64,000 bases of DNA from Bilabrum cf. latius (lineage: Eukaryota): contig OZ237739.1 in the NCBI GenBank assembly GCA_965178125.1, forward strand, positions 1,116,001 to 1,180,000, written 5' to 3'. The number at the start of each line of letters is the position of its first letter. Within the stretch, counting starts at the first letter, position 1. Shown one piece after another: positions 4,815 to 63,282 of the stretch. The translations under genes and the position numbers were made by a program. Under the pieces are notes generated by a model. It made no database searches and had not been told where the DNA came from. It saw only the letters and a list, made by a program, of their open reading frames with translations.

Positions 4815-4881
4815 ATCCGGAGACGAGACGTGGTACTACACAGGGCTGCGGCAACAGGCATCCGGAGACGAGACGTGGTAC
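4815..4881. repeat. 22-bp perfect direct repeat (ATCCGGAGACGAGACGTGGTAC x2) in a divergent intergenic region
   Basis: Copies at 4815-4836 and 4860-4881, between the IleRS start (-) and the membrane-protein start (+). Confidence 0.85.
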
Positions 4882-21063: not shown

Positions 21064-21238
21064 ATCGTCCCCTTGACAGCTCCGCAGCAGCTGAGTGGGC
21101 TCGACTGGTCGATTTTCAGGGTAGGATTGACGCCTTGGGTCGCAGGGAGGTTCCGTTCAGGCGCCTTTGGTCGCAATATCGTACGTGCACGCAACTTTGC
21201 AATGACGCGCAGGCTAACATGTCCTTTACTTTACCACC

Positions 21239-29800: not shown

Positions 29801-31750
29801 GACGTCCATCTCCTCGTAGAATACCCTCTCCAAGTGCCCCTCAAACACAGGAGGATCCACAGCGATCCACTCTGCGTCGTCGCTCGAGTCATCCAAATCA
29901 TCACGGCCAGCGTGCTTGTCCAGGGAGCCCTCTGCGACAGGCATACTGCTGATTCTTGCCTAGGCAGGGTCCAAATCGGCTTGCTAACGGAATGAGGCTG
30001 GCAGCGCCGACTTGAATTCATCTCGCTAAGTAGCTTCTGAACTATTTTGCTGCTATACTGCGACCGCGATTGCGCGGACCACCTCCGATGGATGAAGGGG
30101 TCGCACACGAGGCACAGCAGGGGCCGAGGCAGCCACGCCAGCGGCACGACCAATTGCGGTCCAAAGCTTTCCCTGACCGTCGCCGCACCATCTTGCCATC
30201 GAAAAGGACCGCGACAAACTAGCAATGCAACTCAATGGCGCAGCTACCAGCGCACTTGTCGTGCCCTTGGGCAGCAATGGAGCGTCCAAGGACTGATGCA
30301 AGGCTGCAACTGCGTCCATCGTATCACCAGGCGAAGCGACTGCATCGATGCTAGCCCCCTAGGGCAAAGTCCCTCCTCCATCAGGCACACCAATGGCGCC
30401 GAGTGTCGCTTCAATAGATACCCTGGCTCGCTGTGTAACTTTAGAAGGAGTAATCGCTTGTTTGGACCCGATTGGATCGGTCCTCGCATGCGCTCGCAAT
30501 ACCTTGGCAGGGCTGGGACAGGCCGCGACCGCCGTGCTGAGCTCTCTAGGCAATGCAGCTCTGAGACGGGGGTCCAGGCACATGCCTTGCAGCTCTTTGA
30601 GAAGAGCGTGAGAGTGCATGTCGCTGTCTACAAGAATCCTAACAGCGTCGGCAAGCCGTACCATGCATGCGTCCACCGCCCGAATGCCGTCCAGAATCGG
30701 CAGCAGTACCCTCGATGCCCACGCGGGATCGTGCCTTGCCATCAATACAAGCGCTCCAAGTGGTCCCCTGGTGGTTGCAGCCCCGCGGCCGGACTCGATG
30801 GCGATTGCCGGCACGTCTGCCGCTGCAGCCTCCAGGGACTGCAGCTGTGCCGCTACTGTCGGCAGCACAGACGCATTGCGCAGGCACCGCACGGCTCCGA
30901 TGACGATGTCGTTGCTTCTCTTGTACAGCCTCGCGTCCTGATTTGAGATAGAGGGCGACGAGTCTAGTCCCCTGGTGACACACGCGGCGGCTCGCAACAG
31001 AGCCTCGCTCTGCTGCGCCGCTCTTGTCAACACGGCCGGGCCCGGCAACGGCTGCGAAGAAGCGTGCCCCGCATCTACGGACATCTGCAGTCGCCTCGCG
31101 TGGCGCCTATCCAGTCGAGCCAGCTCGGCGGTGCATGCGTTCAGCAAGGCCTCCACGTGGTCGCCCAGCTCCCTGGCTCCTTGGAGCGAGCCTGCGTGCC
31201 CCCTGGCGTGTATGCGGGCGGCAGAGAACGCCAAACTGGCGTCCATGAGCCTAAACCCTTTGGGTCCAAGAGATTTCCACGCGTCTAAGGCAGCTTCAGC
31301 TGGTCTTGCGTCCACCAAGACCCGCGAGAGCAGCTGCGCAGCTGGGGAATCGATTTCGGGATCCGAACCAGAGCTGCCTGAAACATCAAGGAGAGGGGCT
31401 ATACGCTCGTCAAATGCAAGTACAGCCCGTAGTGATACGCTGTCTACCTATGCTGACGGTACGACCGCTTGCTTCGTAGCTCTGGAGCCGTGCCACCGAA
31501 CGGAACGTCTCATCGGCACACTTCGCAGAGCGCGAGAGGGGCCCCCTTTCAGCTAGTCACCCGACAATACGGCTCTCATACTAATAAACTATCGAAGAGC
31601 CTAGCAGTGGATGCATCGACCCATCTGCGTTAGTCTACTCGCCTGTAGCTAGCTGTAGTTGCCTTTCGCAGAGTTCCTTGGCTTCACATATCCTAAATGT
31701 CGCAGCGTGCGCAGCAAGCTGCCAGCCTCAACAGCACACGATCGGTACAT
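26873..31750 (-). CDS. RAP-domain (FASTK-like) organellar RNA-binding protein, about 1625 aa
   Basis: ORFs ending at 27299, 28361, 29405, 30053 and 30359 are in one frame and joined by TAG. The N-terminus is R/S/L-rich and presequence-like (MYRSCAVEAGSLLRTLRHLG). The C-terminus ARLRHDVLRASGWDLVTLPFDHW matches the RAP pattern 'LKxRxLxxxGWxVvxvPyxeW'. Ends in TGA. Confidence 0.7.
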
Positions 31751-32037
31751 AATAAATATTCGTTGGCAAAATAACCGACTTCACTGCACAGAGCTGGCAT
31801 AGGCGGGAAACGAAAATTGCGTCTAGTTTCATTCGTCACATGGTGGCTTGCTCGGCCGTTTCGTTCGTTCAAATTACAACCATTAACAAGAGCTTTTGGG
31901 GAGGTTATTGATACTCTTACTGGTACTGCGTAACTATTGACTCTGTTGTCTAAGTAGTCTCGGGTTGAGACTAGAATTTTGGTGCGAGCAGTTTGAATAC
32001 AAGCAACCAGTTGCGTAGCTCCGCTGACTCGTGCGAT

Positions 32038-41000: not shown

Positions 41001-41514
41001 GCAGCTGCCCCTGCCCGAGGACTGGGAGGGTCCGGGCAGCGAGCTTCTTGAGGACCTGTCGCAGAGATGGGACGTGGCTGGTGGTACGCCCAGCAGAGGA
41101 AATCCGAGGCGCGGTGCCAGCGAAAGCAAAGCAGAGGAAGGACAGGCAGTTGCAGCTACGTTGGACCAGCGGTAGTCTAGGCGATCGCAAGCCAGGGCAC
41201 CGGCTCCAGATGGCAGCTCCATCGCGATGTCTCTGTCTCCTGAATCGGACAGTGTGCAGGAAAATGAGCCCGGGCTTGGTTCTGGGGCATTGCTCGGTCA
41301 GGAAGGGCGCACTGCACGGAGGGTCATCAGGGGGAGGGGTTCGCGGGCGGGGGCAGCGCAGCCAGGGAGGGGCCGGGGGGTTGGCTTGGAGGCTATGTCG
41401 GGGGTCCGCGCGGCCCGTCCGTCTGTGCAGGTGCCTGCGGGGCAGGACTTGACAGAGATGGCGTCCAGCGTGCTGGATACGCTTGGATTGCTTGAGGGGG
41501 ATGAGACCGAGTGA
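32038..41514 (+). CDS. Giant intronless protein (about 3158 aa): Gly/Ala-rich N-terminus, long central coiled coil and an R/S/K-rich disordered C-terminal third
   Basis: Track ORFs starting at 32203, 32590, 33595, 34096, 35179, 35902, 36511, 36790, 37078, 37489 and 41227 all share one frame and are interrupted only by TAG, often in Q/E-rich context (QQQHDDF[TAG]EQLKQQ). Ends in TGA. Confidence 0.8.
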
Positions 41515-42846: not shown

Positions 42847-45800
42847 ATGTCGTTGCTATCAGATGCATCGATCCAGTAGCGCCCAACCTGTCTCCGTATG
42901 GTCGGAGTTAGGCCGGGGCAAGAGCCACAGCTGGTGCCTCTTCTCGGGATGCAAGTCAAGGTAGACCTTCAGATTGCCGTCGGGTGAGAAAATTTTTGGG
43001 CAATTAATAAGTTGACTAGTTTGATACTAGTTTTGCGGCTTCGGTGGGTCGTCATGAAGTAGAGTCAGGGCATTTCCTGAGGTTGCTTGGGTGGATTCGT
43101 TTAGCTTGCACGTGCCACCCTGCCGCCAGCGATGACTGGGACTGCTGGGAGGTAGCATCTCGCTCACAACTGAATAATGCTTTGCACAGCATTACGTTGA
43201 CTCTATCAAGGCTGTTCACGGCCGACATGGTTTGCCCAAGGTTGTGGCTGGCATACTGACAAGCGCTCTGCTCAGGTTCCGTTGCACACGATTAACCTTC
43301 TGCGGCCTGGAATTGTACGGAAACGATGCATTGCGCGTCAGAGTGACATAGCTCGTGTCTCTCAACCCTATTTGTCGATCCAACCGTGTCGTGCTTCCAC
43401 CATCCGTCCCATTCTCGTCCGGTCCGAGCAGGCTTGTCAACATCCGAGCGCGCTTTGCGAACCCGCTGTCATCCCCCATCGACGTCGTGATTGAAGTACC
43501 CACACAGGAGCGCAACACCACGATCTCGAGCGCCACCGCCTACCTCGCTGATGGTCGCGCCGTGGACACTCAGGTCGTGGACACGAGCGAAGCCGCCCAG
43601 CATGCGCCCAACGAGGACATGATCCGCACAGCCAAGGAATTCAGCCCGGATCAAGCCACCGCGTACAACCCCAATTCCTTCCGGCTGCCTGTGGCAGGCG
43701 TGCCTGCCGAGTCAGAGGTAGCCGTTGACGTCAGCTACTTCCAGACGCTCGATTTCGACAATGGCGAGTACAAGATCGTCGTGCCGACCCAGCTGCCGCA
43801 CGCCTACATGCCAGCATCCGGAAACGCCATGGAGGTGCTCCGTGTGGACGCCGCCGTGAACGCAGGCACCTCAGAGGCCTCTTGGGGCTGCGCCTCGCAC
43901 CCGATGCAAACCAAGGCAGGGCCGCCCCCCGCGCCCGTGGGCACGTTCGTCAAGCCCGCCTACACCACCACAGTGCAGCTGAACGGACAAACGGTGACGG
44001 TGCAGATCCCCGAGGAGACCTTCAGGCATGCCGCGGCCGAGAAACGAATGGACGTGGGTGTGCCTGGGTTTATCGGAGGGGGCGGCGGAGACGCTGGTGC
44101 TGCACCGCAAGGCGCTGCAGGCTCGCCCTCGGCGCACCCTGGATTCGGCGGGGGCGCGCCTGCTCCTGCCCCCGCCCCATCTGCCCCTTCTCCCGCGGTG
44201 CAGCGGCAGCAGCAGCTGGCCCAGGAACTGGCGATGCAGGGCAAGGCCGGCCCGGTGCGGTTCGAGCTGGAGCCCAGCCTCGGCCGGCAGTGGGCGAACC
44301 AAGACTTCGTGCTGTCGTACAAGGCCTGGTCCCGTGACATTCTGTGCAACGCCGTACTGGAGCCTGACAGGGATGAGCGAGGCATGGCCAAGAAAGAAGA
44401 CGGGTCCTTCGTTATGTTCATCGCACCTCCTGCTACGGGCTCGGGCGAGACGGCACCTCGAGACGTCGTCTTCTTGATCGACAACTCGTATAGCATGCAT
44501 GGGTCTGCCATGCGACTGGCCAAACAGGCCCTGCAAGAGTGCCTGAAGCTGCTGGCCCCAACCGACAGGTTTTCCATTGGAGTTTTCAACCATCGCATGC
44601 AGTGGTGGAACGGATCGCAGACGCGGTACAACAAGGCTTGGGATGAGGCGAAATCGGGCCAAGAAGGGGGCGAAGGCAAGTTTTTCGGCGCTGACAAACG
44701 AAGTGCCGCGCACCAGTTCGTGGGCTCGATCGAGACGAACGGCGGCACCAACATCATGAGGCCGATGATGTCCGCGCTCGACATGCAGCAAAAGGTGCAG
44801 GGGTATGTCTAGGGCCGAGCAGACGCCCAGCAGCGCGTACCAGTAGTGTTCTTGATCACGGACGGTGCGGTGGGAAACGACAAGCAGATTTGCAGCCGGG
44901 TCAAGGATAGGAACGACGAGGCGAGGATGAACGGGCAACAGCTCACGAGGGTGTTCACCTTCGGGCTGGGCGCGTTCGTCAACGACCATTTTCTGACCTC
45001 ACTCGCGCAGCTCTCCAGGGGCAAAGCTGAGTTCGCGCTGCAAGAGGAAAGCATCGAGCCGAGCATCGTGCGGCTGATGAAGGCATCGAGTGACCCCGCT
45101 CTTCTCAACATCATGTTCAAGATGCCCAGCAGCATTCGGGAGATCGAATTCTACCCGTACCCCATCCCTGATCTCTACCGAGGGCAGCCCGTCGTCGTGT
45201 CGGGGCGGTACACGGGCCCCCATCCGCACGAAATCAAGGTTCGTGGCACCCTGCCTAGCGGTGGAATCAAGGATATCATCGTGCAGCCCGTGTTCTCTCA
45301 GTCGGTTCCCGTGCGTCGCATGTTTGCCAAGGCGCAGCTGGACCTGCTGATGGCATCCCACTGGCTCATGCCCGGTGGCAGCATAGCGGCCGAGGACCAG
45401 CGCAAGAAGATCGTTTCAGTGAGCAAGAGGCACGAAGTGCCGTGCCCGTACACCACCATGATTGGATACACTGGGAAGACAGGTGATATATACGGCAAGA
45501 GACAGGCGCAGTACCACTCAAACTTCGGGGGCTGGGGGCGTGGCTCAAGCGGTGGCGGCAGCAGCGGGGGAGGGGCAGCCGCTGCGGCCGCGTCTGCTGG
45601 AAGACACGGAGGCAGCGGCGGCGGCCCTTCCGGTGGTTTCAGCGGTGGCGGCGCGGGCGGTTACGCGGCATCTGGCGGGGCCGCGGGCGGAGGCCAGACA
45701 CCGGGCTTCGGCTCCGACGACGGCTGGGGCAGCGTGCCCGGCGCCGGCAAGACCAAGAACTCTGCCTTGCCCAAGCCAGGCTTTGGGGGGACTACGGGCA

Positions 45801-46723
45801 CCACGGCGGGTCTCGGAAAGAGCTCCACAGCCACCGACCCCGCGAATCAGTGGACCGCTGGGAAGACTGCTGCGGTGGCGGGTGGCGTCGTCGCTCTCGG
45901 GGCTACCATCGGGGCGGGAGTGGCTCTGGGGAGCTACGTGGCTGCAGGTGGAACCGCCTCTGGGCTGGTGGGAGGGGCCATCAGCGGGGGCGGGAGTGCG
46001 CTCAGCAGCCTGGGTCAAGCTGCGTCTGGGGGAGTTAACGCGATATTCGGCGGGATCAACTGCGACTGCTTTGGCGTGGACTGCGGTCCCTGCGGCGGCC
46101 TGCCCGGGTGTCTCGACGGACTGCTGGGCGACTTTGGCCACTGCGCGGGGGGCTGCCTGTCGTGCCCCGGCGACTGCATAGGTAAGGTGGGCGAGGGCCT
46201 GGGCGACTGCTGCAAGGACGGTGGAGGCTTCATTCAGGGCGCAGGGTCCATATGCCACGGCGTGGGAGAGTCTTTGGGGACCTGCTTCTCGGGTGCAACG
46301 GACTGTGCGGGGAATGCCTGTGGCAGTATCGGTGCCGTGCTGGCGAACTGCGCGGGGCGAGCAGGTGACTGTTCCCTGGGCGGTGCGTGCAACGGTGAGT
46401 GCATCGGCGGGTGCGTGAACAGCATGCAGAACTGCGTGGGGGGGCTGGGGGGCGCCATCGGTGGCTTGTGCAATGGTGGGTGCGCACCTCTCTCCGGGCT
46501 GGGCGATTGCCTGGGCGGGTGCTGTGGGAGCGTTGTCGGCGTCGCAGGGGAAGGGCTTAAGGCACTTCCTGGCCTGTGCAGTGGGCTGGGAGGGTGCGTG
46601 TCCGGTGTGTGCTCTGGCGCTGGCGGTTGCGTGGGCATGCTAGGTGAGGTCGCGAAGGACATCGGTCCATGCCTCGGCAGCGTTTGCGATGTGCTTGGGG
46701 GCCTTCTTGGAGCACTACGCTGA
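42847..46723 (+). CDS. VIT + von Willebrand A domain protein (VWA5/ITIH-like) with a Gly-rich linker, a hydrophobic segment and a Cys/Gly-rich tail
   Basis: Exon 1 (42847-42983, LVPLLGMQVKVDLQIAVG) splices across intron 42984-43431 to LVNIRARFANP (VIT). MIDAS elements DVVFLIDNSYSM, GGTNI, FLITDG and RVFTFGLG. TAG 44810 lies inside the vWA fold. Ends in TGA. Confidence 0.85.
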
Positions 46724-46867: not shown

Positions 46868-49800
46868 ATGAGCACGGCGGCCGAATAGCTCATAGAATTT
46901 GGTGAATTGTCTGGGCTTCGACCATCAAGGGGTACTGCGAAGGCATGGCAAGGTTTAGCTGACAAAGTTGACGAGTCGCAACGAACGGCAGCGCTGCCAG
47001 GCTGCTTGTGGGCACTTGCAACCATGCGGTAAGGGTTTCTGTATTGGTGTGGATAGCATAACCGCTTACTCAATTGTACTAGCAGTCTTCATTGAATGAA
47101 TGAACCACCTCGCAGGGCTGGGAGCGCAGACGAAGGCCGCGCTGTCCTGAAAGCCCTAAAGGCTGCACCAGCTACCAAATCAGATCCGCTAGTATGGGTA
47201 TCACTAGCACTACTCGAAGCAGAACAAGGTAAGTACTATTTGTAAGTGATTTTGGAGCCAGCAATTCATGTTTGATGGATATCCAGAGTCTGAGCGCTGC
47301 TGTTTTCTGCGCGCAGGAAAAACATCTTCGGCGCGCATGACCATGCGTCTCGCCAAGATGGGCTGTCCTGAAGCATTGAAGCCGTTGACACTTCTAGAGG
47401 ATGCGATTCGCAGCGGTTGTGGGCTCGGCTCCTTTAACCCATTCGATGTTTGCAAGGGGGATGCCGCACCAGCAGATGCAGCCGGCGCAGCCAAGGCCGC
47501 ATCACACCCGAAGAAAATCGCAGCCATGATGTCCGAGTCTTTAGAAGCTGCCGCCGCTCGTAGAAAACGCACTGGTGGCTCCGCCCGGCTGGGCCTTCCC
47601 CAGCGGGTGCCTGCGTCCCAAGCGAGCACCGATGCGGAAGACGAGCAGCAGACCGGCGAGCAACCCGGAGCAGGAGCAGGAGCTAGCGTAACCAAGATGC
47701 CTAGGCGGCCCGCTGGCGTAAGCACCCTGTCTCCTGTGTAGGAGCAGGGTATGGGCGGGCGCAGGAGCAGCGGAGCCTCTGCCGCTGGGACCAGCTAGCG
47801 GGTAGGTGCCAGACCTGCTGCAGCGGGCGCTGCTGCAGCCAAAGGCAAGGCCAAGTCGGTAGGATTTGCGCTCCCTGACTACATCAAGGAATTTGCGCCT
47901 CGCAAGAAGGCATCAAAATCGTCGAGGTCGTCTTCGTCCTCCTCTGCCTCGTCGTCTGCCATTCGCACAAGCACTGGCTCGGCTGCAGCGGAGCCCCAGG
48001 CGGGAGCACGCAGAAAGGCATCGAGCGCTAGCGTACCAAATCAGGAGCGCCCAGATGGGCAGATAGAGTCGTTTGAGCGCAGATAGTCGAGCCAGTCGCA
48101 GCAGGCCGGCGCAGCAAGCGCCAGGGCGCCGAGCTCCAGCCACCGCAATGAGAGCGCAATCACGCCGGGTCCGGCCCACGGATCCCGCTAGGCAGCGTCC
48201 CAGCCCTCGCCCGATACGATCGGACTGCCCGTTGTGACACCAGCGGCGCGACGGCACTCGGGCGCCGGTCGGCGGCAGGGCGCCAGCATGCCAAGAGGGG
48301 GCGGCGGCGGTCCGGGCCGCGGCACGCAGGAGGACGATGGAGATGATCTCGACCTGGCCAGCCCGGAACCTTTCATGCCACGATCTACTGCTCTGCTCGG
48401 CGGAGAGTGGACCTCGAGCTCACCCGACAAAGAAGAGCTGCCAGCCAGCAGCAGCAGCAAGGCGAAGCCAAGCGATGCCGCATCCAAGTCTGATTTGAAC
48501 GGGGCTGGGAGCAGCCGGAAAAGGCCTAGAAGCGCCACGAAGATTAGCAAAAGCAGCAGCGTAAGTAAGCTTGCTACCGATTAGCCCGCGACTGAGTTAG
48601 CGGCTGAGTCAGCATCTGATGGCAAGCCACCTGAGTCGGCTGCGAAGCGCAGACGCACCGAGAGTGGGAAGGCAGAAGCTTCGTTCGAGCCGAGCTCCAG
48701 CTCCAGCGGCAGCCAGGTCAAGATGAGCGATGTCGACAATGTCGAAGGCGGAGATGATGACGAGGATGAAGATATCGAATTCAACCCTGGACGAGGCAAC
48801 AGGCGAAGCCGAAGCCGCAGTCGCAGCCGGAGTCGTCGGCGCCGTGGCGGAAACAATAGCAGCAGCGGGCTGGCGGCCGGAGCCGGCGTCGAGAATGAGG
48901 ACGGCAGAAAGGGCGCGAGGCAGGCCATCGGAGCCGTTCCTGCGTCGAGTGCAGCGAGGCCTAAAAAAGCTGCGTCGCCTTCGTCGCCGACCGCAGATAT
49001 AAGAGCTGCGTCACCGCCCAGCAGGCGCCGCTCTGGTTCCAGTGCGCCGGGAGCAGTCGATGAAAGCGAGAAGAGAAAAGAAGCCGGCGACTTGGGCGAT
49101 CGAGCCAGCCCCGAATCTCCTACCATCGTGTTCAACAAGAAAAGGAAAGGCGGCGGCAGGGGCAGGCAGACCTCCAGACGGAGGGAAGACCACAGTGACG
49201 GCGAGCGGCCCCATGCATCCTCGGCCGAGCGACCGGGTAGGGCGACCAGCTCCGCAGCTGCTTCTGAAGATCCTGAGACGGCAAGCCATGCTGTGCAGAG
49301 AAAGACATCGGGAAGGTCGGGCGGCAGCCGCTCCGGCGACCGCAAGGTATCGCCATCGGAGGATTCCGGGCCCGTGTCAGTCCTCTTTGGCGGTGCGTCC
49401 GGCAGCCGCTCCGTAATCAAGGTAAACGGAAACCCCTACCTCAGGCTAGACGTGGTGGGCAAAGGCGGCTCCAGCAAGGTCTTCAGGGTGCTCGGGAAAG
49501 ACCTAGGCGTGTACGCCCTCAAGAGGATCCGCCTGTCGAGGATGGACCGGGCCTCGCTCGCCAGCTACACGAACGAGATAGCGCTGCTTCGAAGGCTGCG
49601 GCACGGTCGACACATCGTGCAGCTGCGGGAGGCCCAGGTGGACATCGGGAGCAAGACCATCTACGTGGTGATGGAGCTGGGCGAGACCGACCTTCACGGG
49701 CTGCTGAAGCGAGAGAGGTCGGCGGCCAAGGAGCGCGAGGATGAGCTGGACAAGCTGCGGGCCGGTGCTGCCGGCAAGAGGGGCCGCAGGGGTGCGGGGC

Positions 49801-51353
49801 CCGCCTCGCCGCAGCCTGCGGACAGGGTACCTGCCGAGACGGTGGCCACGGGAGGGCTAGATGAGAACTTCATTCGTCTTGTGTGGCAGCAGATGCTGCT
49901 GGGCGTGCGAGCGATCCACGAGGCGCGCGTGGTGCACGGAGATCTGAAGCCGGCCAACTTCGTCTTCGTGCAAGGTGTGCTGAAGCTCATCGACTTTGGA
50001 ATTGCAAAGGCCATCAGCGCCGATACTACAAACATTTACAGGGAGACGCAGGTGGGGACTATCAACTACATGTCGCCAGAGGCCATTCTCGACACCTCGG
50101 CGCAGGCAGGTGGTGCTGCCGCGGCCGCAAAGCATCGAGGCATGAGGATGCGGGTGGGCCGTGCCTCGGACATCTGGTCGCTGGGCTGCATCCTTTACCT
50201 CATGGTGTACGGCCGGACCCCCTTCGCGGACCTCAGCCTGATCCAGAAGCTCAGATGCATCACGGACGAGTCCTACGAGATCCCCTTCCCGGACCTGCCG
50301 GCCAGGCACGCCCCGCTGATGGACGTCATGAGGGCGTGCCTGCGGAGAGACCCCACGGACCGTCCCACGATCGACGGGAGGTCTGGTCTGCTGGAGCACC
50401 CCTTCCTGCGGCCAGGAGCAGCGACAGATGGCGGCGCCGCCTCATCGCTCCCTGAGGGCACGATTGCCGTGGACCGCAGCACGATCGAGTCGGCCGCACG
50501 AGCCCTCACGCACCCATCCGTGGCCGGGGCCGTGTCTGGGCGCGGCGCGGCCGGAGACGACGCTGTCAAGCGGATCGGGGGTGCCCTGTTCGAGCAGCTC
50601 CGCGGAGCGGTGGATGGGCACGCCATGATCGACCGGCAGCAGATGATGGACGAGGCCGGCGTGCGCCCCCTGCCCTCCTCTTCCTCCTCGTCTTCCTCGT
50701 CGTCCTCTGCTTCTACTTCCTCATCGCCGCCCTCGCTGCCCTCCCAGGCACCCGGGCCAGCAGCCTCTGCATCGTCCCGCGCAGCCTCTCTGCACGGCCA
50801 CTCACCTGTGCATGCCCGAGCAACGGATCCTGCCGGGCACCAGCTCGCTCGACAGAAACTGGCCTTTGCCGAGGAGCTGGGCAGCGTGGCTCTGGGCCGG
50901 GGCACGAAGCGGAGCGGCCGCGGAGGACGGTTTAAGTCGAAGAAGAAGAAGGGACCGTCAGCCTCCGCTGCCTAGCACGGTGGAGAGGACAATACGGGCT
51001 TCGCAGGCGGGCTGGCAGCCGGAATCGCAGCCGCAGCTGGAGCTCGCAGCAAGCGTGTGGAGGAACAGGGCTAGGCCCCCAGCCCGCGGTCCAGGTCCGC
51101 CGCCGCAGCCCCGCGGACCAACGGAGGGAAGCTGGCGGCGGCGCTGCAGGAGAGGTAGGCGAACCTGCGGCACGTGGATCCTGCGTCAGCGGGCGGCAAG
51201 GCCAAGCTTGCGGCGCAGGGCATGGCAGGAGCGAGCGCGATGGGGCAGCTGCTCAAGCAGCGGTTCGCCAAGGTGCAGAGCTCGCTGCCAGCTCACTTGA
51301 AGCGCGCACCGACAGATGGAGAGACTGGGGAGATCTCGTGGATTGATGGATGA
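46868..51353 (+). CDS. MPS1: Mps1/TTK dual-specificity kinase: N-terminal TPR-like region, long disordered linker, kinase domain and WH2/VCA-like tail
   Basis: Kinase motifs GKGGSSKVF, YALKRI, NEIALL, VMELGETDL, HGDLKPANF, LKLIDFGIAKAISADTTNIYRETQVGTINYMSPEAI and SDIWSLGCILYLMVYGRTPF are diagnostic of Mps1. The spliced 5' exons give LVWVSLALLEAEQ|GKTSSAR...PLTLLEDAIR, similar to the TTK TPR region. Multiple in-frame TAGs. Ends in TGA 51351-53. Confidence 0.9.
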
Positions 51354-51477: not shown

Positions 51478-53136
51478 ATGTCGAAGTGAGAGTTCATGGA
51501 TACCATGCGAATCAGATGAGAATGCACAGACTTGTTTTCATGATGCATTCTGATGTTGTCGTGAAGTCTTGGACTCTGTTTCTCAGACGTGATGCAGATG
51601 GCCTACACCTTATCGGCTACTCTGCATGTCATCATACTGCTGATGAATTAGCGAGTTTGCTAGCTCAGCCAAAGTTCAGGGCTGTGGTAAACTGGTAGCA
51701 TGTAAACTGGGTAAGGGTTAAGACTCCAAGATGCAACCAAATTCAAGATCGTAGCCTCTTGCTCTCATCCTCGTCGAGATTATGTGCGTCGAATGCAAAG
51801 TTGATGACTGTATTACATTCAATGGTTATTAATCTGTTGCTGCCCCGAGCAAGCATGCATCATTGACATGCTAGGTTGCTGCGTGGAAGACTCGATCCAA
51901 ACCCTCTGATGCGCCGACCCTGCGCAGCATCTCCGGCCACCACTGTACGAGGCAGCTTGGTGGAATGAAGCTGCAAAAGTTCGTCTGCTTTGCTAGGCGG
52001 GAGCGTACCCAGATATACGAGAGTCTTCTGTGAGAACGGAGCGCAACTGCAACTGCAGGACGCGTGCCGCAAGTTGCTGTATCCCACGCAATCCGGCCCA
52101 ACTCATCCAAACGAATACAGGGACTGGAAACACCTCTGTATAGTGCTGCGACGAAGCACAATCTGGAGGCAGTCGAAGCGTGCCTTCAATGTGGTGCGGA
52201 CCCCGATGCACCCAACATAGTGAGACTTCTGGCACGCTGCTGGCACGCTGCAGGCCAGGCCTTTGGGAAATGGAACAAAAGTATTCCTTTCTTGTCCGAT
52301 CTGCGTAGTTTCTTATTTAAAGAGCTGCGTTTTTCGCATCGACTTTCCTTTGCTTGCAGTCAGGCGTCACCCCGCTGGTTCACGCACTGAGCCACAACCA
52401 CCTCCCAACCGCGATGCTCCTAGTAGCGTTCGACGCCGACATTTTCCATCCTGACGTTGGACCGCGCTTGGCCGCTCTCGGGTGCCCATTTCCCCAATTC
52501 CCAACTCCTTCCGCTGGATCCGGTGGCGCCGATGGGGACGAGTATTCGCGTGCCTACCGCCGATGGCTCGCCTCTGACTCGGATGACACGCCCCGGGGGG
52601 GGCCTGCAACCGTGAGACGCGCAAAAGAACCGGATGCAGCCGCCGGTGACGCGGCTGGCGCGGGGCCTCAGTCGTCGGTGATGGCCAAGTGGAGCGCCGT
52701 GGAGCACATCTACTTCCGGTTTGTGGCAGCGGCCGACGATGCGACCATGGAGAGGTGCCGTCGCCTGGGCCTGGAGAAACACCGGCCCCGGGGGATGCAG
52801 CTGCTGCGTTTCAGGAGGGCAGTGGAGGCCAAGAGGGACGCGGGGAGGGTGTTCCGAGCAGCCAGCGAGGGCAGGCCCATGGAGCTGGCCAGGAGGCTGA
52901 GGCTGGGCAAGCTGGCGGGCGGCTTGGCCATCAAGGGTGTCGTGGACGGGGACTTGATGTCACCCCAGAAGGCCGCTCGGCTTGGAGGACACAACGAGTG
53001 CGTGAAACTGCTGAATCAGGCAGCGTTCGGTCTCATGGCCCAGGTCGGCAGGGAATCCTCGGGGGTAGAGGGCAGCGGGATGGCGGGCCAGGTGGATGCT
53101 TTGGTGTTTCCGAAGGGAATGTAGGGCGGAAAATAA
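51478..53136 (+). CDS. Ankyrin-repeat protein (copy 1) with the same C-terminal module as the 10.5-13.8 kb gene
   Basis: Exons 51478-85, 51587-51710, 51928-52029 (PPLYEAAWWNEAAKVRLLC[TAG]AGA), 52121-52219 (TPLYSAATKHNLEAVEACLQCGADPD) and 52360-53136 (GVTPLVHAL...). Ends PKGM[TAG]GGK-TAA. Confidence 0.8.
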
Positions 53137-53349
53137 CAAATTGTGCGCTGTGTATGTGCCTGTGTAGACTAGGACGTCCATCGTAGAGCGCAACTCAAAC
53201 GAATATAGCTGTGAAATCTGGCAAAGGGGAGCTGCACACAGACAGCCTAACCGCGACAATGGACTTTCGTCCGTGACCGAATATAGTAGAGAATGCCTTA
53301 GTCACTAGTAGTAGTCTATATCTCCTGCTCCGGGCCTGAGATCCCACTA

Positions 53350-53516
53350 GAGGGGCCCCCCACTTTGGTGGGACTTGCGGGACAGCACTTGCAGGACGCG
53401 CTGACTCGGTGGAGGGAGGAGTCGAGGCGGGCTGGGCGCCCGGGGACTTGTGCCCGGGTCCGGGCTTGGGGGGTGCCGGGTGGGGGGGGGGGGGTATCTG
53501 GAGGGGATGGTGTGAT
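53350..53516 (+). pseudogene. Internally deleted remnant of the Nup107-like fragment
   Basis: Concatenation of three pieces homologous to about 55812-55880, 56685-56735 and 57561-57600. Confidence 0.6.
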
Positions 53517-53972
53517 TGGAAGTCGCATTAGCATGGTCACGGGGCTTAGCATGTGGGCGTCATGGGGATACACATCCATGTGGGCTGGTCTATGCCAGCC
53601 TTGGTATCTGTGCAAACCCTGGATCGACTGCAGCAACAGACTGCGTGCTGGCAGCGCGCGGAGCCCACGTTCCATTGCGGAACCTCGAGGCCAGGAAGGG
53701 TTCACTCTTGGCTAGTCATCGTGCCTATCGAATAGTACGAGAAGTGTCATCGTGCAAATTCAATCTGTCTGTTTAGGCTTCTTCGAGTTGCCATCACTGC
53801 GGCTAGTTGGGCTTCCAGACAAGGCCCCGATATCCCTGACCTAGTGCTGGAGCAGACTCGAAGCCGTGGTGTAGCTCGACTAGTGTGAAATTCGTGTTGA
53901 GTCCGATCAACTTGAAGTGGAGACAAGCTTGTAAGACTGTCCAGGCTTTGCTTGCATCTTGGCGTGTTTTCC

Positions 53973-55613
53973 ATGGCAGGTCCGGATGAGGTGATTGACC
54001 TGGTGAGCAGTGATAGTGAAGAAGAGTTTGAGGGAAACCCCGGCGGAAGCATGGTTGTAAGTGGTCGTGCGGAGGCATCACCTGGACTACTAGGTGCCGT
54101 TGTATCACGGAGTGGGCGAGCTGGGCGAGGCAGCATGGCTGTTGGTCCAGAGTTGTAGTCAGCATCAGGTTCAACAGCTGCATTGATGACATTGGCTTCT
54201 GGAGTCTAGTCAACTGAATCAGTGTCATCTAGTGCTACCAGCACAAGGGCCCGTTTGGGGCAGAAGAGAGTCCGTGAAGACTTCGAGGCTGCCGAAGAAG
54301 GTGGCGATGCAGTGGATGAGCACGGTGCAAGCAACAAGAAGAAGAAGAGGAGGAGAGAGGAGCAGAGTCCAGCGGCAGGGGAACTCACCGGCGATAGTGG
54401 CAAGGGATACGATTGCTCAGTGTGCGGCAAGCGCTTTGGACGCCCAGGCCATCTCACGACGCACATGAGGACTGTGCACCTCGGGGAGCGCAATCACGAG
54501 TGCTCTGTGTGCGGCAAGCGCTTTGGGGTGGCAGGCAATCTCACGAAGCACATGAGGACTGTGCACCTTGGGGAGCGCAATCACGAGTGCTCTGTGTGCG
54601 GCAAGCGCTTTGGACGCCCAGGCCATCTCACGACGCACATGAGGACTGTGCACCTCGGGGAGCGCAATCACGAGTGCTCTGTGTGCGGCAAGCGCTTTGG
54701 GGAGGCAGGCAGTCTCTCGACGCACATGAGGACTGTGCACCTCGGGGAGCGCAATCACGAGTGCTCTGTGTGCGGCAAGCGCTTCGGGGAGGCAGGCAGT
54801 CTCTCGACGCACATGAGGACTGTGCACTATGGGGAGCGCAATCACGAGTGCTCTGTGTGCGGCAAGCGCTTTGGGGTGGCAGGCAATCTCACGACGCACA
54901 TGAGGACTGTGCACCTTGGGGAGCGCAATCACGAGTGCTCTGTGTGCGGCAAGCGCTTTGGACGCCCAGGCCATCTCACGACGCACATGAGGACTGTGCA
55001 CCTCGGGGAGCGCAATCACGAGTGCTCTGTGTGCGGCAAGCGCTTTGGGGTGGCAGGCAGTCTCTCGACGCACATGAGGACTGTGCACCTTGGGGAGCGC
55101 AATCACGAGTGCTCTGTGTGCGGCAAGCGCTTTGGGGAGGCAGGCCATCTCACGACGCACATGAGGACTGTGCACCTTGGGGAGCGCAATCACGAGTGCT
55201 CTGTGTGCGGCAAGCGTTTTGGGCTGGCAGACAGTCTCTCGACGCACATGAGGACTGTGCACCTTGGTGAGCGCAATCACGAGTGCTCTGTGTGCGGCAA
55301 GCGCTTCGGGGTGGCTGGCAGTCTAAAGACGCACATGAGGACTGTGCACTATGGGGAGCGCAATCACAAGTGCTCTGTGTGCGGCAAGCGCTTTGGGAAG
55401 GCAGGCCATCTCACGACGCACATGAGGACTGTGCACCTTGGGGAGCGCAATCACGAGTGCTCTGTGTGCGGCAAGCGCTTTGGGGTGGCAGGCAATCTCA
55501 CGACGCACATGAGGACTGTGCACCTTGAGGAGCGCAATCACGAGTGCTCTGTGTGCGGCAAGCGCTTTGGGAAGGCAGGCAATCTCAAGAAGCACATGAA
55601 TGCAATGCACTGA
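53973..55613 (+). CDS. SIM-like motif + NLS + 14-finger C2H2 zinc-finger array protein (ZF-A)
   Basis: ATG 53973 reads MAGPDEVIDLVSSDSEEEFE, then TAGs at 54156 and 54207, KKKKRRR and 14 x 29-aa CSVCGKRFGxxxxLxxHMRTVH repeats (87 bp). Ends in TGA. Confidence 0.93.
54408..55610 (+). repeat. 87-bp coding minisatellite, 14 units
   Basis: Near-identical units CACGAGTGCTCTGTGTGCGGCAAGCGCTTTGG....ACGCACATGAGGACTGTGCACCTTGGGGAGCGCAAT. Confidence 0.97.
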
Positions 55614-55811
55614 TAGGCTTGGAAACGCACTGTGCATGACGTGTTGAGCAACCCATGCCTGCTGGCACCAGTTGCAAAGGCAATCCTGCCTTTCTGCTTT
55701 ATTGCTGGCGCGGTTTTCTCTCTCGTGGGAAGAATGAGCTGCAGGCGAGGAATTCTGGACAGTCACATCTGGACTTGAGCGGCAATCGAGTGGCGTGGAC
55801 TTGAGCCCCTG

Positions 55812-57600
55812 GAGAGGGCCCCCACTTTGGTGGGACTCGCGGGGCGGCACTGGCAGGCCGCGCTGGGTCGGTGGAGGGAGGGGGCGAGCGGGAAGCACAG
55901 GCGGGCAGAGCTGCTGGCGCTGCGGGCGTGGGCCATGCTGGCGGAGGCAGTGGCGGGCGCAGGGGCCGGGGCCCGCGGGTGGCTGCAGGCACCCATGGAG
56001 GCGGCAGCAGAGGTGGCGGCTGGATGCCGGTCTTTGCCCCAAGAGACAGGGGCGATCGGCTGGGGGGCAAGGCTCGGCGGGGCTTCGGGTGCTGCAGATA
56101 CATCCGGGACCAGCAACAGCAGCAACAGCAACAGCAGCAGCGGTAGGCGAGCGAAGGCCATTCGCACTCGATTGGCAGCGAGAGCCGCTGCTGCCGGAGT
56201 GCTGGGCCCCGAGGACGCTGGCTTGGGAGGACTGGTGCCCGGACGTGCCGACCTGTGCGTGGTGTCCATCCGCTTGCACGCGCAGGTTCCCTCGCGGCCC
56301 ATCTCACGAGACCAGGAGGAGGGCGATGAGGACGAGCGGGTGGAGGCATCGGCAGGGGCAGGGGCAGGGGCAGGGGCAGGGGCAGGGGCAGGGGCAGGGG
56401 CAGGGGCAGGGGCAGGGGCAGGGGCAGGGCGAGGCGGTGAGCGCAGCAAGTAGGTTCCGGTCTTCGTGGCTTGATCAGCCGCAAGTCCTGGTCCGTGCAT
56501 GCACTCGGAATCGGAATAGGTATCGGAATCGGACTCGCTCGGGGAACACGGCGGCGCCTCCGCCGCGCCCGCGCCTTTATCCGCTCGCGAGGTCAGCCAG
56601 GCCATGGCGAGCCTCGAGAGCGACTGGACCCGGCCCCGCGGAGCCAACTGCGGGCCATGGGACGAGGCCGGCCTGGGGCTGGATGCGGGGCGGCTGGGCG
56701 CCCGGGGACTCGCGGCTGGGTCCGGGCATGGGGGGGACACGCCCCCCCTGTGCTGCCGCGTGCCCACCGCCGGCTGGGTGAGACGGGCCGTGGTGCCTCA
56801 GCTGGTCTGGATGATGCACGACGTGATGCATCGCATTGCGGCGTGGGCCATGCCCCTGGTGCGGGGAGAGGCCGTCATGGGAGTGCCCCGGGGCGGCGAG
56901 GGAACAAGCGCGGAGGCGAGCACGAAGCAGGTGCTCGAGCGCATGCTCGCTTTGGCTGGGGACCAGGGCTCCAGAGGGGCTGTCTCGGCGCTGTGCTGTG
57001 CCACTGGAGGTGCAGGTGCAGGTGCATGTGCATGTGCATGTGCATGTGCATGTGCAGGTGGTGGCTCGTTGGGCTCGAGCTTGAATGCAGTGCACTGCAG
57101 CGACAGGGTGTGCGTCCTGCTGCGCCTCGCCATGCGGGTGGGATCGGCTGTTGCAGACCCCTGACGGCATCGGCACCGCAAGCGCTGCTTCCTCTTCCTC
57201 GGGTAGCCCGAGCCCAGTGGCTGTGGGCTCCGTTGGAATCGGCTCAGGGGCCAGGAGGAGGAGGAATAGGAGGAGGAGGCAGGGGGTGTTGCGCCCGCCA
57301 TCTGGGGGTGGGTCTGGCCTGGGCTCGGTGGACGAAGGGGCTGGGTCCGGGAGCGGGGAGGGGGCGGCGATGGTGTTCGGGGGCGGGGAGGGGGTAAGCG
57401 TGGGGGACCGTCAGGGCAAGGGGTGGGCGCTGGGTGTGCCGAGCGCGGGGGTACGGGAGTGCTTCGCCTGTAAGTATGGTCCCCGAGGGAAGGCGACGGA
57501 GAAGAGGGAGGTGAAGCGGCTGCCCACTGCCGTGGCCGAGTCGGCTCGTTTGCTTCTCGAGGTGCCGGGGCGGGGGGGGTATCTGGAGGGGATGGTGTGA
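55812..57600 (+). pseudogene. 5'-truncated, disrupted gene fragment resembling the Nup107/Nup84 C-terminal region
   Basis: Reads RAELLALRAWAMLAEA...VRRAVVPQLVWMMHDVMHR...AMRVGSAVADP...GVRECF...EVKRLPTAVAESARLLLE, which parallels the Nup107 C-terminus as I recall it. In-frame TGA at 56472-74, a frameshift near 57160 and no 5' part. Confidence 0.5.
56352..56430. repeat. (GGGGCA)n microsatellite, about 13 units
   Basis: Perfect hexamer run. A (CATGTG)n run also occurs at about 57024-57055. Confidence 0.95.
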
Positions 57601-58065
57601 TTGGAAATCACCTTGGCATGGTCACGGGGCTTAGCCTGTGGGCGTCATGGGGATACACATCCATGTGGGCTGTTCTATGCCAGCCTTGGTATCTGTGCAA
57701 ACCCTGGATCGACTGCAGCAACAGAACAGACTGCGTGCTGGCAGCGCGCGGAGTCCACGTTCATTGCGGAACCTCGAGGCCAGGAAGGCTTCATTCACTC
57801 TTGGCTAGTCATCGTGCGTATCGAATAGTACGAGACGTGTCATCGTGCAAATTCAATCTGTTTGTATCGGCTTCTTCAAGTTGCCATCACTGTGGCGAGT
57901 TGGGCTTCCAGACGAGGCCCCGATATCCCTGACCTAGTACTGGAGCAGACTCGAAGCCGTGGTGTAGCTCGACTAGTGTGAAATTCGTTTTGAGTCCGAT
58001 CGACCTGAAGTGGAGACAAGCTTGTAAGACTGTCCAGGCTTTGTTTGCATCTTGGCTTGTTTTCC

Positions 58066-59793
58066 ATGGCAGGTCCAAATGAGGTGATTGACCTGGTGAG
58101 CAGTGATAGTGAAGAAGAGTTCGAGGAAAACCCCGGCGGAAGCATGGGTGTAAGTGGTCGTGCGGAGGCATCACCTGAACTACTAGGTGCCGTTGTATCA
58201 CGGAGTGGGCGAGCTGGGCGAGGCAGCATGGCTGTTGGTCCAGAGTTGTAGTCAGCATCAGGTTCAACAGCTGCATTGATGACATTGGCTTCTGGAGTCT
58301 AGTCAACTGAATCAGTGTCATCTAGTGCAACCAGCACAAGGGCCCGTTTGGGGCAGAAGAGAGTCCGTGAAGACTTCGAGGCTGCCGAAGAAGGTGGCGA
58401 TGCAGTGGATGAGCACGGTGCAAGCAACAAGAAGAAGAAGAGGAGGAGGAAGGAGCAGAGTCCAGCGGCAGGGGAACTCACCGGCGATAGTGGCAAGGGA
58501 TACGATTGCTCTGTGTGCGGCAAGCGCTTTGGACGCCAAGACACTCTCAAGACGCACATGAGGACTGTGCACCTCGGGGAGCGCAATCACGAGTGCTCTG
58601 TGTGCGGCAAGCGCTTTGGGGTGGCAGGCCATCTCTCGACGCACATGAGGACTGTGCACCTTGGGGAGCGCAATCACGAGTGCTCTGTGTGCGGCAAGCG
58701 CTTTGGGGTGGCAGGCAGTCTAAAGACGCACATGAGGACTGTGCACCTCGGGGAGCGCAATCACGAGTGCTCTGTGTGCGGCAAGCGCTTTGGACGCCCA
58801 GGCCATCTCACGACGCACATGAGGACTGTGCACTATGGGGAGCGCAATCACGAGTGCTCTGTGTGCGGCAAGCGCTTTGGGGTGGCAGGCAGTCTCTCGA
58901 CGCACATGAGGACTGTGCACCTTGGGGAGCGCAATCACGAGTGCTCTGTGTGCGGCAAGCGCTTCGGGGAGGCAGGCAGTCTCTCGACGCACATGAGGAC
59001 TGTGCACTATGGGGAGCGCAATCACGAGTGCTCTGTGTGCGGCAAGCGCTTCGGGGAGGCAGGCAGTCTCTCGACGCACATGAGGACTGTGCACCTTGGG
59101 GAGCGCAATCACGAGTGCTCTGTGTGCGGCAAGCGCTTCGGGGTGGCTGGCAGTCTAAAGACGCACATGAGGACTGTGCACCTTGGGGAGCGCAATCACG
59201 AGTGCTCTGTGTGCGGCAAGCGCTTTGGGAAGGCAGATCATCTCACGACGCACATGAGGACTGTGCACCTTGGGGAGCGCAATCACGAGTGCTCTGTGTG
59301 CGGCAAGCGCTTTGGGAAGGCAGGCAATCTCACGAAGCACATGAGGACTGTGCACCTTGGGGAGCGCAATCACGAGTGCTCTGTGTGCGGCAAGCGCTTT
59401 GGGGAGGCAGGCAGTCTCTCGACGCACATGAGGACTGTGCACCTTGGGGAGCGCAATCACGAGTGCTCTGTGTGCGGCAAGCGCTTCGGGGTGGCAGACA
59501 GTCTCACGACGCACATGAGGACTGTGCACCTTGGGGAGCGCAATCACGAGTGCTCTGTGTGCGGCAAGCGCTTCGGGAAGGCAGATCATCTCACAAAGCA
59601 CATGAGGACTGTGCACCTTGGGGAGCGCAATCACGAGTGCTCTGTGTGCGGCAAGCGCTTTGGGAAGGCAGGCAATCTCACGACGCACATGAGGACTGTG
59701 CACCTTGGGGAGCGCAATCACGAGTGCTCTGTGTGCGGCAAGCGCTTTGGGGTGGCAGGCAATCTCAAGAAGCACATGAATGCAATGCACTGA
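58066..59793 (+). CDS. SIM-like motif + NLS + 15-finger C2H2 zinc-finger array protein (ZF-B)
   Basis: ATG 58066 reads MAGPNEVIDLVSSDSEEEFEE, with TAGs at 58249 and 58300 and 15 x 87-bp fingers. Ends in TGA. Confidence 0.93.
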
Positions 59794-60065
59794 TAGGCTT
59801 GGAAACGCACTGTGCATGACGTGTTGAGCAACCCATGCCTGCTGGCACCAGTTGCAAAGGCAATCCTGCGTTTCTGCTTCATTGCTGGCGCGGTCTTCTC
59901 CTCGTGGGAAGAATGAGCTGCAGGCGAGGAATTCTGGACAGTCACATCTGGACTTGAGCGGCAATCGAGTGGCGTGGACTCGAGCCCCTGGAGAGGGCCC
60001 CCACTTTGGTGGGACTCGCGGGGCGGCACTGGCAGGCCGCGCTGGGTCGGTGGAGGGAGGGGGCG

Positions 60066-61154
60066 AGAATGGAACTGCAACTGCAGGACGCGTGCCGCAA
60101 GTTGCTGTATCCCACGCAATCCGGCCCAACTCATCCAAACGAATACAGGGACTGGAAACACCTCTGTATAGTGCTGCGACGAAGCACAATCTGGAGGCAG
60201 TCGAGGCGTGCCTTCAATGTGGTGCGGACCCCGATGCACCCAACATAGTGAGACTTCTGGCACGCTGCTGGCACGCTGCAGGCCAGGCCTTTGGAGAAAT
60301 GGAACAAAAGTATTCCTATCTTGTCCGAGCTGCTTAGTTTCGCTGCGTTTTTCGCATCGACTTTCCATTGCTTGCAGTCAGGCGTCACCCCGCTGGTTCA
60401 CGCACTGAGCCACAACCACCTCCCAACCGCGATGCTCCTAGTAGCGTTCGACGCCGACATTTTCCATCCTGACGTTGGACCGCGCTTGGCCGCTCTCGGG
60501 TGCCCATTTCCCCAATTCCCAACTCGTTCCGCTGAATCCGCTGGCGCCGATGGGGACGAGTATTCGCGTGCCTACCGCCGATGGCTCGCCTCTGACTCGG
60601 ATGACACGCCCCGGGGGGGGCCTGCAACCGTGAGACGCGCAAAAGAACCGGATGCAGCCGCCGGTGACGCGGCTGGCGCGGGGCCTCAGTCGTCGGTGAT
60701 GGCCAAGTGGAGCGCCGTGGAGCACATCTACTTCCGGTTTGTGGCAGCGGCCGACGATGCGACCATGGAGAGGTGCCGTCGCCTGGGCCTGGAGAAACAC
60801 CGGCCCCGGGGGATGCAGCTGCTGCGTTTCAGGAGGGCAGTGGAGGCCAAGAGGGACGCAGGGAGGGTGTTCCGAGCGGCGAGCGAGGGCAGGCCTCTGG
60901 AGCTGGCCAGGAGGCTGAGGCTGGGCAAACTGGCGGGCGGCTTGGCCATCAAGGGTGTCGTGGACGGGGACTTGATGTCACCCCAGAAGGCCGCTCGGCT
61001 TGGAGGCCACAGCGAGTGCGTGAAGCTGCTGAATCAGGCAGCATTCGGTCTCATGGCCCAGGTCGGCAGGGAATCCTCGGGGGCAGAGGGCAGCGGGATG
61101 GCGGGCCAGGTGGATGCTTTGGTGTTTCCGAAGGGAATGCAGGGCGGAAAATAA
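60066..61154 (+). pseudogene. Ankyrin-repeat gene copy 2, 5'-truncated (only the last two exons remain)
   Basis: Near-identical to about 52032-53136, but homology begins inside the intron, so exons 1-3 and the ATG are missing. Ends PKGM-CAG-GGK-TAA. Confidence 0.7.
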
Positions 61155-61989: not shown

Positions 61990-63282
61990 ATGGCAGGTCC
62001 AAATGAGGTGATTGACCTGGTGAGCAGTGATAGTGAAGGAGAATTTGAGGGAAACCCCGGCGGAAGCATGGGTGTAAGTGGTCGTGCAGAGGCATCATCT
62101 GGAGTGCTGGGTGCCGTTGTATCACGGAGTGGGCGAGCTGGGCGAGGCAGCATGGCATTTGGTCCAGAGTTGTCGTCAGCATCAGGTTCAACAGCTGCAT
62201 TGATGCCATTGGCTTCTGGGGTCTAGTCGACTGAAGGGGTGTCATCTAGTGCAACCAGTACAAGTGCCCGCTTGGGGCAGAAGAGAGTCCGTGAAGACTT
62301 CCAGGCTGCTGCAGAAGGTGGCGATGCAGTGGATGAGCACGGTGCAAGCAACAAGAAGAAGAAGAGGAGGAGAAAGGAGCAGAGTACAGCGGCAGGGGAA
62401 CTCACCGGCGATAGTAGCAAAGAATACGACTGCTCTGTGTGCGGCAAGCGCTTTGGGGAGGCAGACAATCTCACGACGCACATGAGGACTGTGCACCTTG
62501 GGGAGCGCAATCACGAGTGCTCTGTGTGCAGCAAGCGCTTTGGGCAGGCAAGCAATCTCACGAAGCACATGAGGACTGTGCACTATGGGGAGCGCAATCA
62601 CGAGTGCTCTGTGTGCGGCAAGCGCTTTGGATTGGCAAGCAATCTCACGAAGCACATGAGGACTGTGCACCTTGGGGAGCGCAATCACGAGTGCTCTGTG
62701 TGCGGCAAGCGCTTTGGATTGGCAAGCAGTCTCACGACGCACATGAGGACTGTGCACCTTGGGGAGCGCAATCACGAGTGCTCTGTGTGCGGCAAGCGCT
62801 TTGGGGAGGCAGGCCATCTCACGAAGCACATGAGGACTGTGCACCTTGGGGAGCGCAATCACGAGTGCTCTGTGTGCGGCAAGCGCTTTGGGCAGGCAAG
62901 CCATCTCTCGACGCACATGAGGAGTGTGCACCTTGGGGAGCGCAATCACGAGTGCTCTGTGTGCGGCAAGCGCTTTGGGGAGGCAGGCCATCTCACGACG
63001 CACATGAGGACTGTGCACCTTGGGGAGCGCAATCACGAGTGCTCTGTGTGCGGCAAGCGCTTTGGGGAGGCAGGCCATCTCACGACGCACATGAGGACTG
63101 TGCACCTTGGGGAGCGCAATCACGAGTGCTCTGTGTGCGGCAAGCGCTTTGGATTGGCAAGCAGTCTCTCGACGCACATGAGGACTGTGCACCTCGGGGA
63201 GCGCAATCACGAGTGCTCTGTGTGTGGGAAGCGCTTTGGGGTGGCAGGCAATCTTAAGAAGCACATGAATGCGATGCACTGA
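61990..63282 (+). CDS. SIM-like motif + NLS + 10-finger C2H2 zinc-finger array protein (ZF-C)
   Basis: ATG 61990 reads MAGPNEVIDLVSSDSEGEFE, with one TAG at 62224 (the other site is TCG at 62173) and 10 x 87-bp fingers. Ends in TGA. Confidence 0.93.

Follow-up and report, generated by a model that had tools for sequence, protein, structure and literature searches.

Here we report on a 64,000-nucleotide stretch of DNA from Bilabrum cf. latius (hereafter the window; G000:C5:1116001-1180000 of a 48.6-Mb eukaryotic assembly in 111 contigs) in which two duplicated ankyrin (ANK) genes end alike except for one codon, TAG in copy 1 and CAG in copy 2. Throughout the genome TAG stands in frame at glutamine (Gln, Q) positions while TGA and TAA terminate, and TAG is very probably decoded as Gln by a single transfer RNA with the anticodon CUA, tRNA(CUA), in a cell whose release factor eRF1 is predicted to lack UAG recognition. 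Judged from the sequence, the code is that of NCBI table 15 (UAG as Gln, UAA and UGA as stops), which is rare and already known elsewhere. What appears new is the lineage, the use of TGA as the main stop and a suppressor tRNA without a Gln-derived look, and an earlier report of these is possible.

TAG as a sense codon across the genome

The initial annotation of the window had taken TAG for an ordinary substitutable sense codon, a view strongly supported by tests on dyneins, paralogues and reading frames across the genome. In 864 kb, coding-like frames of at least 1000 codons number one under the standard code, 17 with TAG opened, one with TAA opened, three with TGA opened and 18 with both TAR codons opened. 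Stops lying inside 28 dynein AAA matches and inside the Prp8 match are all TAG. The 19 dynein heavy-chain frames, of 2403-3333 codons each (61,965 in total), contain 270 TAG, 2262 CAG and 390 CAA codons, and no TAA or TGA. Of 131 long open reading frames (ORFs), 103 have TAG in their core, and TAG supplies 513 of 4974 Gln codons (~10%). By both the dynein frames and the opened-frame counts, UAA is not read as Gln, and the code is thus not the ciliate-type code 6.

TAG use is uneven among the dyneins: three frames (L110, L116 and L117) contain 48, 29 and 31 per ~3300 codons, and two others (L101 and L118) one and three. Its frequency tracks the use of CAA and GAA, so that TAG acts as a non-preferred codon.

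The residue was read from 120 outside dynein homologues, counting columns filled by at least 96 of them, a threshold passed by 192 of the 270 TAG codons; the outside dyneins belong mostly to one orthologue group, which makes the scoring of the remaining paralogues noisier. Summed over the 192 columns, the log-likelihood is +1.3 for Q, -195 for K, -227 for S and -254 for E, so that Gln leads every other residue by a gap of ~197 or more, and the same scoring recovers the standard meaning of the other 61 codons. At 90%-conserved columns Q is faced by 25 of 45 TAG, 310 of 489 CAG and 32 of 60 CAA codons. Paralogues within the genome give TAG a profile that equals the CAG one (Q at 0.188 vs 0.193).

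Exchanges between paralogues and the ankyrin pair

The initial annotation proposed that TAG/CAG exchanges among paralogues should occur at the synonymous rate, and this is what we observe. Filters on identity (75-99.9%), on length and on coding signature retained 278 of 778 paralogue alignments and 23,052 non-redundant codon pairs. TAG is conserved in 68 of these pairs and differs in 56. The partner is CAG in 16 of these, GAC in six, AAG and GAG in five each, TGG in three, CAA, TCG and TGC in two each, and one of 15 other codons once each. Per rarer codon, TAG/CAG exchanges occur at 0.083 (16/192), compared with 0.079 (38/483) for the synonymous control TTG/CTG (p=0.88) and 0.013 (57/4411) for nonsynonymous first-position T/C exchanges (p=3e-8). 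The ANK pair contributes one of the 16:

51587..53136, + strand: ANK copy 1, exons 2-5, from GT..AG joints in runs X5-X7 and Pfam Ank; stop TAA at 53134-36
51486-51586, 51711-51927, 52030-52120 and 52220-52359, + strand: ANK copy 1 introns, with GT..AG joints in runs X5-X7
51696, 51994 and 53122, + strand: in-frame TAG codons of ANK copy 1, whose spliced frame stays open through TAG alone
53122..53124, + strand: the TAG of the initial annotation, the fourth codon ahead of TAA and taken as Gln from the genome-wide code
60065..61154, + strand: ANK copy 2, a 5'-truncated duplicate with CAG at 61140-42; stop TAA at 61152-54

Runs X5-X7 are taken as RNA solely from their GT..AG joints; no run is recorded as RNA. 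Copy 1 ends TTT CCG AAG GGA ATG TAG GGC GGA AAA TAA (53107-53136), and copy 2 (61125-61154) has the same letters with CAG (61140-42) replacing TAG. These codons, and those named in the zinc-finger (ZF) genes described below (TAG at 54156 and 58249, TCG at 62173), are all where the initial annotation had them, and its ANK and ZF labels hold: exon 52124-52219 of copy 1 contains an ankyrin repeat above the Pfam cut-off, and Pfam finds 14 C2H2 fingers in ZF-A. Local alignment pairs 52032-53300 with 60065-61318; since the match to copy 1 starts only at 52032, inside intron 3, and the upstream exons are absent from copy 2, the latter must be a duplicate that lacks its 5' part. Between the last exons there are 15 codon differences, TAG/CAG among them, and RNA-type contigs covering the diagnostic sites 52508, 52517 and 52523 carry the copy 1 letter. 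Allelic TAG/CAG variation was looked for among the differing letters of the contigs, which came mostly from paralogues; 53122 is not among the sites listed, and no allelic claim is made for it.

The pair had been offered as an internal control for the code, a role it does not fill. One TAG/CAG pair in 15 last-exon codon differences is, by itself, no better than the chance expectation, and the pair is weak as proof because a TAG standing fourth from the stop would be nearly harmless under the standard code and the CAG copy is truncated. Under the genome-wide code the difference would be a silent change, a by-product of that code. Stronger cases, missed at first, are the two TAG codons at 51696 and 51994, which lie upstream of the repeats once copy 1 is spliced.

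Window positions 52813-53020 encode a C-terminal module of roughly 65 residues, with a partial ankyrin-like helix pair at its end, that is covered by no Pfam family. The module is lineage-wide and attached to many unrelated N-termini at ~40 or more places, many of them on G000:C14 (264 candidates at first look), and at G000:C14:352000-405600 its last 86 bases, stop included, form tandem arrays of up to ~20 copies behind several genes. A GC-rich element is found at the ZF/ANK duplication junctions (window 53340-53480, 55800-55890, 59980-60065 and 61360-61510) and may mediate these duplications, because ANK copy 2 begins directly after one.

The zinc-finger family

The other proposed control was TAG in two ZF genes where a third has TCG:

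53973..55613, + strand: ZF-A, 546 codons with 14 C2H2 fingers; a derived TAG at 54156 and a family-wide one at 54207; stop TGA
58066..59793, + strand: ZF-B, 575 codons; TAG at 58249 and 58300; stop TGA
61990..63282, + strand: ZF-C, 430 codons; TCG at 62173 and TAG at 62224; stop TGA

The family has 13 copies over two contigs, and at this site two carry TAG, ten carry TCG and one has a gap. We read the difference as one derived Ser-to-Gln event common to ZF-A and ZF-B, in a loose linker; as a single nonsynonymous event it fails as a control, and it is uninformative on the residue encoded by TAG. At position 54157 the TCG form is seen in nearly all contigs, also in those of the DNA-type run; this reflects the collapse of paralogues and gives no evidence on expression. 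The second in-frame TAG (54207, 58300, 62224), overlooked in the initial annotation, is the stronger case: it is kept in 12 of the 13 copies, with GAG in the remaining one, and in nine of these 12 the stretch from the last upstream TAG to the first finger has no in-frame ATG. The claim that TAA is the shared terminator stands for the ANK pair and fails for the ZF family, where TGA terminates 13 of 13, and for the genome, where TGA is the main stop.

The 13 tandem C2H2 genes (window 53973-63282; G000:C5 and C13) encode near-identical 29-residue fingers, 6-16 per gene, that differ almost solely at DNA-contact positions; no effector domain was recognised. We take these arrays to resemble the fast-shuffling PRDM9 or KRAB-ZF kind.

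A candidate decoder tRNA and the release factor

A single nuclear tRNA gene has the anticodon CUA (G000:C23:907607-907679; 69.8 bits, full cloverleaf), on a contig where the ankyrin family of the window is represented as well. It was the only genuine one among seven matches to a pattern search for CUA and UUA anticodons, which found no UUA tRNA and would miss intron-bearing tRNAs; Rfam scored 63 of ~780 candidates. Its stems were compared with those of 28 other nuclear tRNA genes (a set without tRNA-His, tRNA-Leu and tRNA-Ser), with 362 different-amino-acid pairs as background. Across its acceptor and anticodon stems tRNA(CUA) agrees with tRNA-Tyr(GUA) at 20 of 24 bases and with tRNA-Gln(CUG) at 12 of 24, the background maximum being 17. 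Over all fixed fields it matches Tyr at 37 of 53 and Gln(CUG) at 31 of 53, and because 37 is reached by 11 of the 362 background pairs, the Tyr signal is confined to those two stems. Its D stem is closest to that of tRNA-Gln(UUG), at 9 of 10, which is not above background.

By the table in PMC9976931, tRNA(CUA) keeps C1-G72 and U35 of the eukaryotic Tyr identity elements and lacks A73 and G34, and it has the bacterial Gln identity elements G73, G2-C71, G10, U35 and A37; that table gives no Gln determinants for eukaryotes. We lean towards a Tyr-derived suppressor re-charged with Gln, in which tRNA-Tyr(GUA) would have become tRNA(CUA) through the changes G34C and A73G and a D stem of Gln type. 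In the reading favoured overall, the tRNA on C23 would be the UAG decoder, charged with Gln, and substitutions in eRF1 would have led to the loss of UAG reading. As separate observations, tRNA-Gln(UUG) and tRNA-Gln(CUG) are as dissimilar as unrelated tRNAs, and the nuclear tRNA-Ile genes (L021 and L057) have the anticodon GAT, the usual eukaryotic one being AAT.

The genome has one eRF1 gene; a second match in the eRF1 search is one that we take to be Pelota-like. Residue numbering was checked against the human chain, and exon bounds come from splice consensus and homology, not RNA. The gene itself has two in-frame TAG codons, one at human position 44, where 116 of 118 homologues have Q, and one at position 69, where 117 of 118 have L. 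Four substitutions, G29A, N30D, S60V and K130H, are present in none of 111-118 homologues and adjoin the GTS, NIKS and YxCxxxF motifs; S60 is invariant in 76 metagenome eRF1s. A metagenome scan with an eRF1 exon gave 79 loci with a best identity of 73%, V60 in 0 of 76 readable ones and no second recoded relative. L69A has been linked with UAG read-through (PMC5304391). We rejected Q69 as the cause of UAG loss here: it is not diagnostic, given that 7 of the 76 metagenome eRF1s have it, as does a solved plant-type eRF1.

Stop codons and alternative readings

Among 154 coding-like ORFs, some of whose ends may run into introns, TGA terminates 133 (~86%) and TAA 21; eRF1 and one dynein terminate at TAA, the ZF genes at TGA. 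An ambiguous code, in which internal TAG is Gln and late TAG terminates (53122 then being a real stop with TAA as back-up), or in which late TAGs are fossil stops, is improbable in our view. It would be consistent with the intact core motifs of eRF1 and with TAG at -1 to -4 in 5 of 61 first-sample ORFs, the ANK gene included. The C14 ankyrin family mostly terminates GCC TAG GGA TGA and another C14 member stops at TAA directly after LLQEA, but the family's pattern is accounted for equally by Gln. The first-sample excess was not repeated in an independent 560 kb (1 late TAG in the last four codons vs 0.84 expected). A TAG at -10 falls within a FATC domain that finishes at TGA, the coding score drops no more after late TAG than after CAG or CAA (11 cases), and ANK copy 2 has CAG at the position in question with identical downstream codons. 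Late-TAG enrichment was thus set aside as a sign of a dual code, on the strength of the independent 560 kb, and kept as a minor rival.

That TAG is sense with another or a mixed residue, be it Tyr, Glu as in the ciliate PL0344 or Leu as in the rhizarian exLh, has in our estimate about half that chance. The Tyr-like stems of tRNA(CUA), its loop A37-C38 as in tRNA-Glu, the seven of 45 TAG codons facing E at 90%-conserved dynein columns, and the TAG at eRF1 codon 69 facing L in 117 of 118 homologues would all fit, but each non-Gln residue trails by the log-likelihood gap given above. In the in-genome profile CAG faces E about as often (0.113 vs 0.126), Tyr is faced by 0 of 77 TAG at 70%-conserved dynein columns, and neither TAG/TAC nor TAG/TAT occurs among the 56 exchanges. 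The standard code, with TAG as pseudogene nonsense, assembly error, intron sequence or RNA-edited sites, is hardly credible: it suits the ANK pair, as a harmless late nonsense change beside a truncated duplicate, but not TAG in the single-copy essential genes for eRF1, Prp8, isoleucyl-tRNA synthetase (IleRS) and all 19 dyneins, nor interruptions that are exclusively TAG and never TAA or TGA. Assembly error, introns and RNA editing are unlikely because a DNA-type run is identical to the window letters over 34500-52266 and 15 TAGs lie within X5 contigs without a differing letter; the contig around one of these, at 44810, is a spliced one.

Several observations weigh against decoding of TAG as Gln by this tRNA and this eRF1. 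That decoding is inferred from sequence. The stems of tRNA(CUA) are not Gln-like, as a suppressor derived from tRNA-Gln(CUG) would have them, and it keeps C1-G72, the eukaryotic Tyr identity pair (PMC9976931), so that its charging is not predictable from sequence. In eRF1 the GTS, E55, NIKS, S70 and YxCxxxF elements are all intact, and Q69 is shared with the other eRF1s noted above. Half of the single-base TAG exchanges (16/32) go to non-Gln codons, and pooled without the window, TAG in the last four codons is seen 5 times vs 1.4 expected (p=0.013), although AAA, CAT and TCT are in comparable excess. The best solved match of IleRS has E, not Q, at a TAG beside its KMSKS motif.

Lineage and comparison with known codes

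The flagellate is likely a bicosoecid stramenopile related to Cafeteria. Its top named dynein match is Cafeteria roenbergensis (62%), and a one-gene FastTree, of dynein, places it as sister to the Cafeteria pair with a support of 99 (SH-like), apart from oomycetes, ochrophytes and Hondaea. A tandem 18S array on C12 has 1700 nt. A different eukaryotic 18S, of 1802 nt, on a 17.9-kb contig (G000:C95:6099-7900; L067) is likely that of a contaminant or co-cultured organism. The mitochondrial contig (G000:C111, 38.4 kb; L066, L239-L241) has TGA as sense and a tRNA(UCA); ARAGORN finds only 10 tRNA genes on it, and its gene-like long ORFs are all on the same strand.

Cafeteria and Cafileria mitochondria likewise use TGA as sense, with tRNA(UCA) (PMC6972860, PMC6723347). 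Cafeteria roenbergensis/burkhardae, the nearest named relative, has the same mitochondrial code 4, but in the available part of its description a non-standard code is named for the mitochondrion only (PMC6972860). Its nuclear code would be standard, because a Cafeteria dynein of 4208 residues is recorded whole. Database proteins of ten near relatives are 2811-4373 residues long, which suggests standard codes there too and a code change on the branch of the present organism itself.

Table 15 has been reported in Iotanema spirale, Hartmannula sinica, Trochilia petrani and Protocruzia tuzeti (PMC11687900). Our literature search, which left subscription journals and bioRxiv supplements uncovered, found no stramenopile nuclear case; the sequencing runs date from 2025, and those who deposited the assembly may know of the code. 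Iotanema has the same codon table, likewise confined to one lineage among standard-code relatives, but it is a fornicate known from a transcriptome only, and its eRF1 carries T32G in the GTS motif that is intact here (PMC5304391, PMC9161772). Its tRNA was predicted to derive from tRNA-Gln(CUG) (PMC5304391), whereas the one described here is Tyr-like in two stems. The three ciliates share UAG as Gln, UAA and UGA as stops and the same alignment-type evidence; they differ in preferring UAA as stop and in UAG making up 18.5-31.8% of Gln codons (here TGA ~86% and TAG ~10%), and in the available text no suppressor tRNA was found in the two Gln ciliates, whereas here the gene is in hand (PMC11687900). 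The rhizarian exLh (UAG as Leu) and PL0344 (UAG as Glu, UAA as Lys) also uncouple UAG from UAA (PMC5304391, PMC10553269), and in exLh eRF1 position 69 is altered as well (PMC5304391). Both assign another amino acid, and the PL0344 suppressors resemble tRNAs of the residue they carry (PMC5304391, PMC10553269).

Other genes of the window

In-frame TAG is also present in the following genes and frames:

476..4945, - strand: isoleucyl-tRNA synthetase, four in-frame TAG; stop TGA
14038..21156, - strand: 2372-codon frame, 23 TAG; stop TGA
26873..31780, - strand: 1635-codon frame, 14 TAG; stop TGA
31969..41514, + strand: 3181-codon frame, 20 TAG, 10 of them in X5 contigs without a differing letter; stop TGA
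43178..46723, + strand: VWA-domain gene, TAG at 44810 in a spliced X5 contig without a differing letter; stop TGA
47250..51353, + strand: protein kinase gene, eight in-frame TAG; stop TGA

One TAG of the IleRS gene lies three codons ahead of the KMSKS motif, within a conserved block. The longest frame of the window grows from 1239 to 3181 codons with TAG opened and gains nothing with TAA opened. A spliced intron with CT..AC ends (window 42250-42369) shows that a minus-strand gene is expressed in the interval separating the 3181-codon gene from the VWA gene.

Implications

If annotated under the standard code, about four-fifths of the long genes of this organism would come out broken. Nuclear UAA and UAG are nearly always reassigned jointly, and the few exceptions come mostly from transcriptomes or incomplete assemblies without a decoding tRNA. 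Here a 48.6-Mb assembly gives the code, a candidate tRNA and the release factor together, beside a well-studied relative of apparently standard code. The eRF1 changes that would part UAG from UAA despite an intact GTS motif, and the origin of the UAG-reading tRNA, can thus now be addressed.

We raise only tentatively, as somewhat doubtful when its parts are taken together, the proposal that this organism is the first of the stramenopiles to have a non-standard nuclear code, that its amber suppressor was born from tRNA-Tyr and switched to Gln identity, and that it is a candidate host type for giant viruses in which TAG is Gln. If this is true, the new codon got its meaning when a Tyr scaffold was re-charged and not through mutation of a Gln tRNA, and the candidate host type for such viruses would be culturable and related to a known giant-virus host. 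The giant viruses that have been isolated are all from hosts with the standard code, and some viral genomes fit other codes (PMC13524828); a table-15 relative of the CroV host may, speculatively, offer a lead on this gap between giant-virus codes and known hosts.

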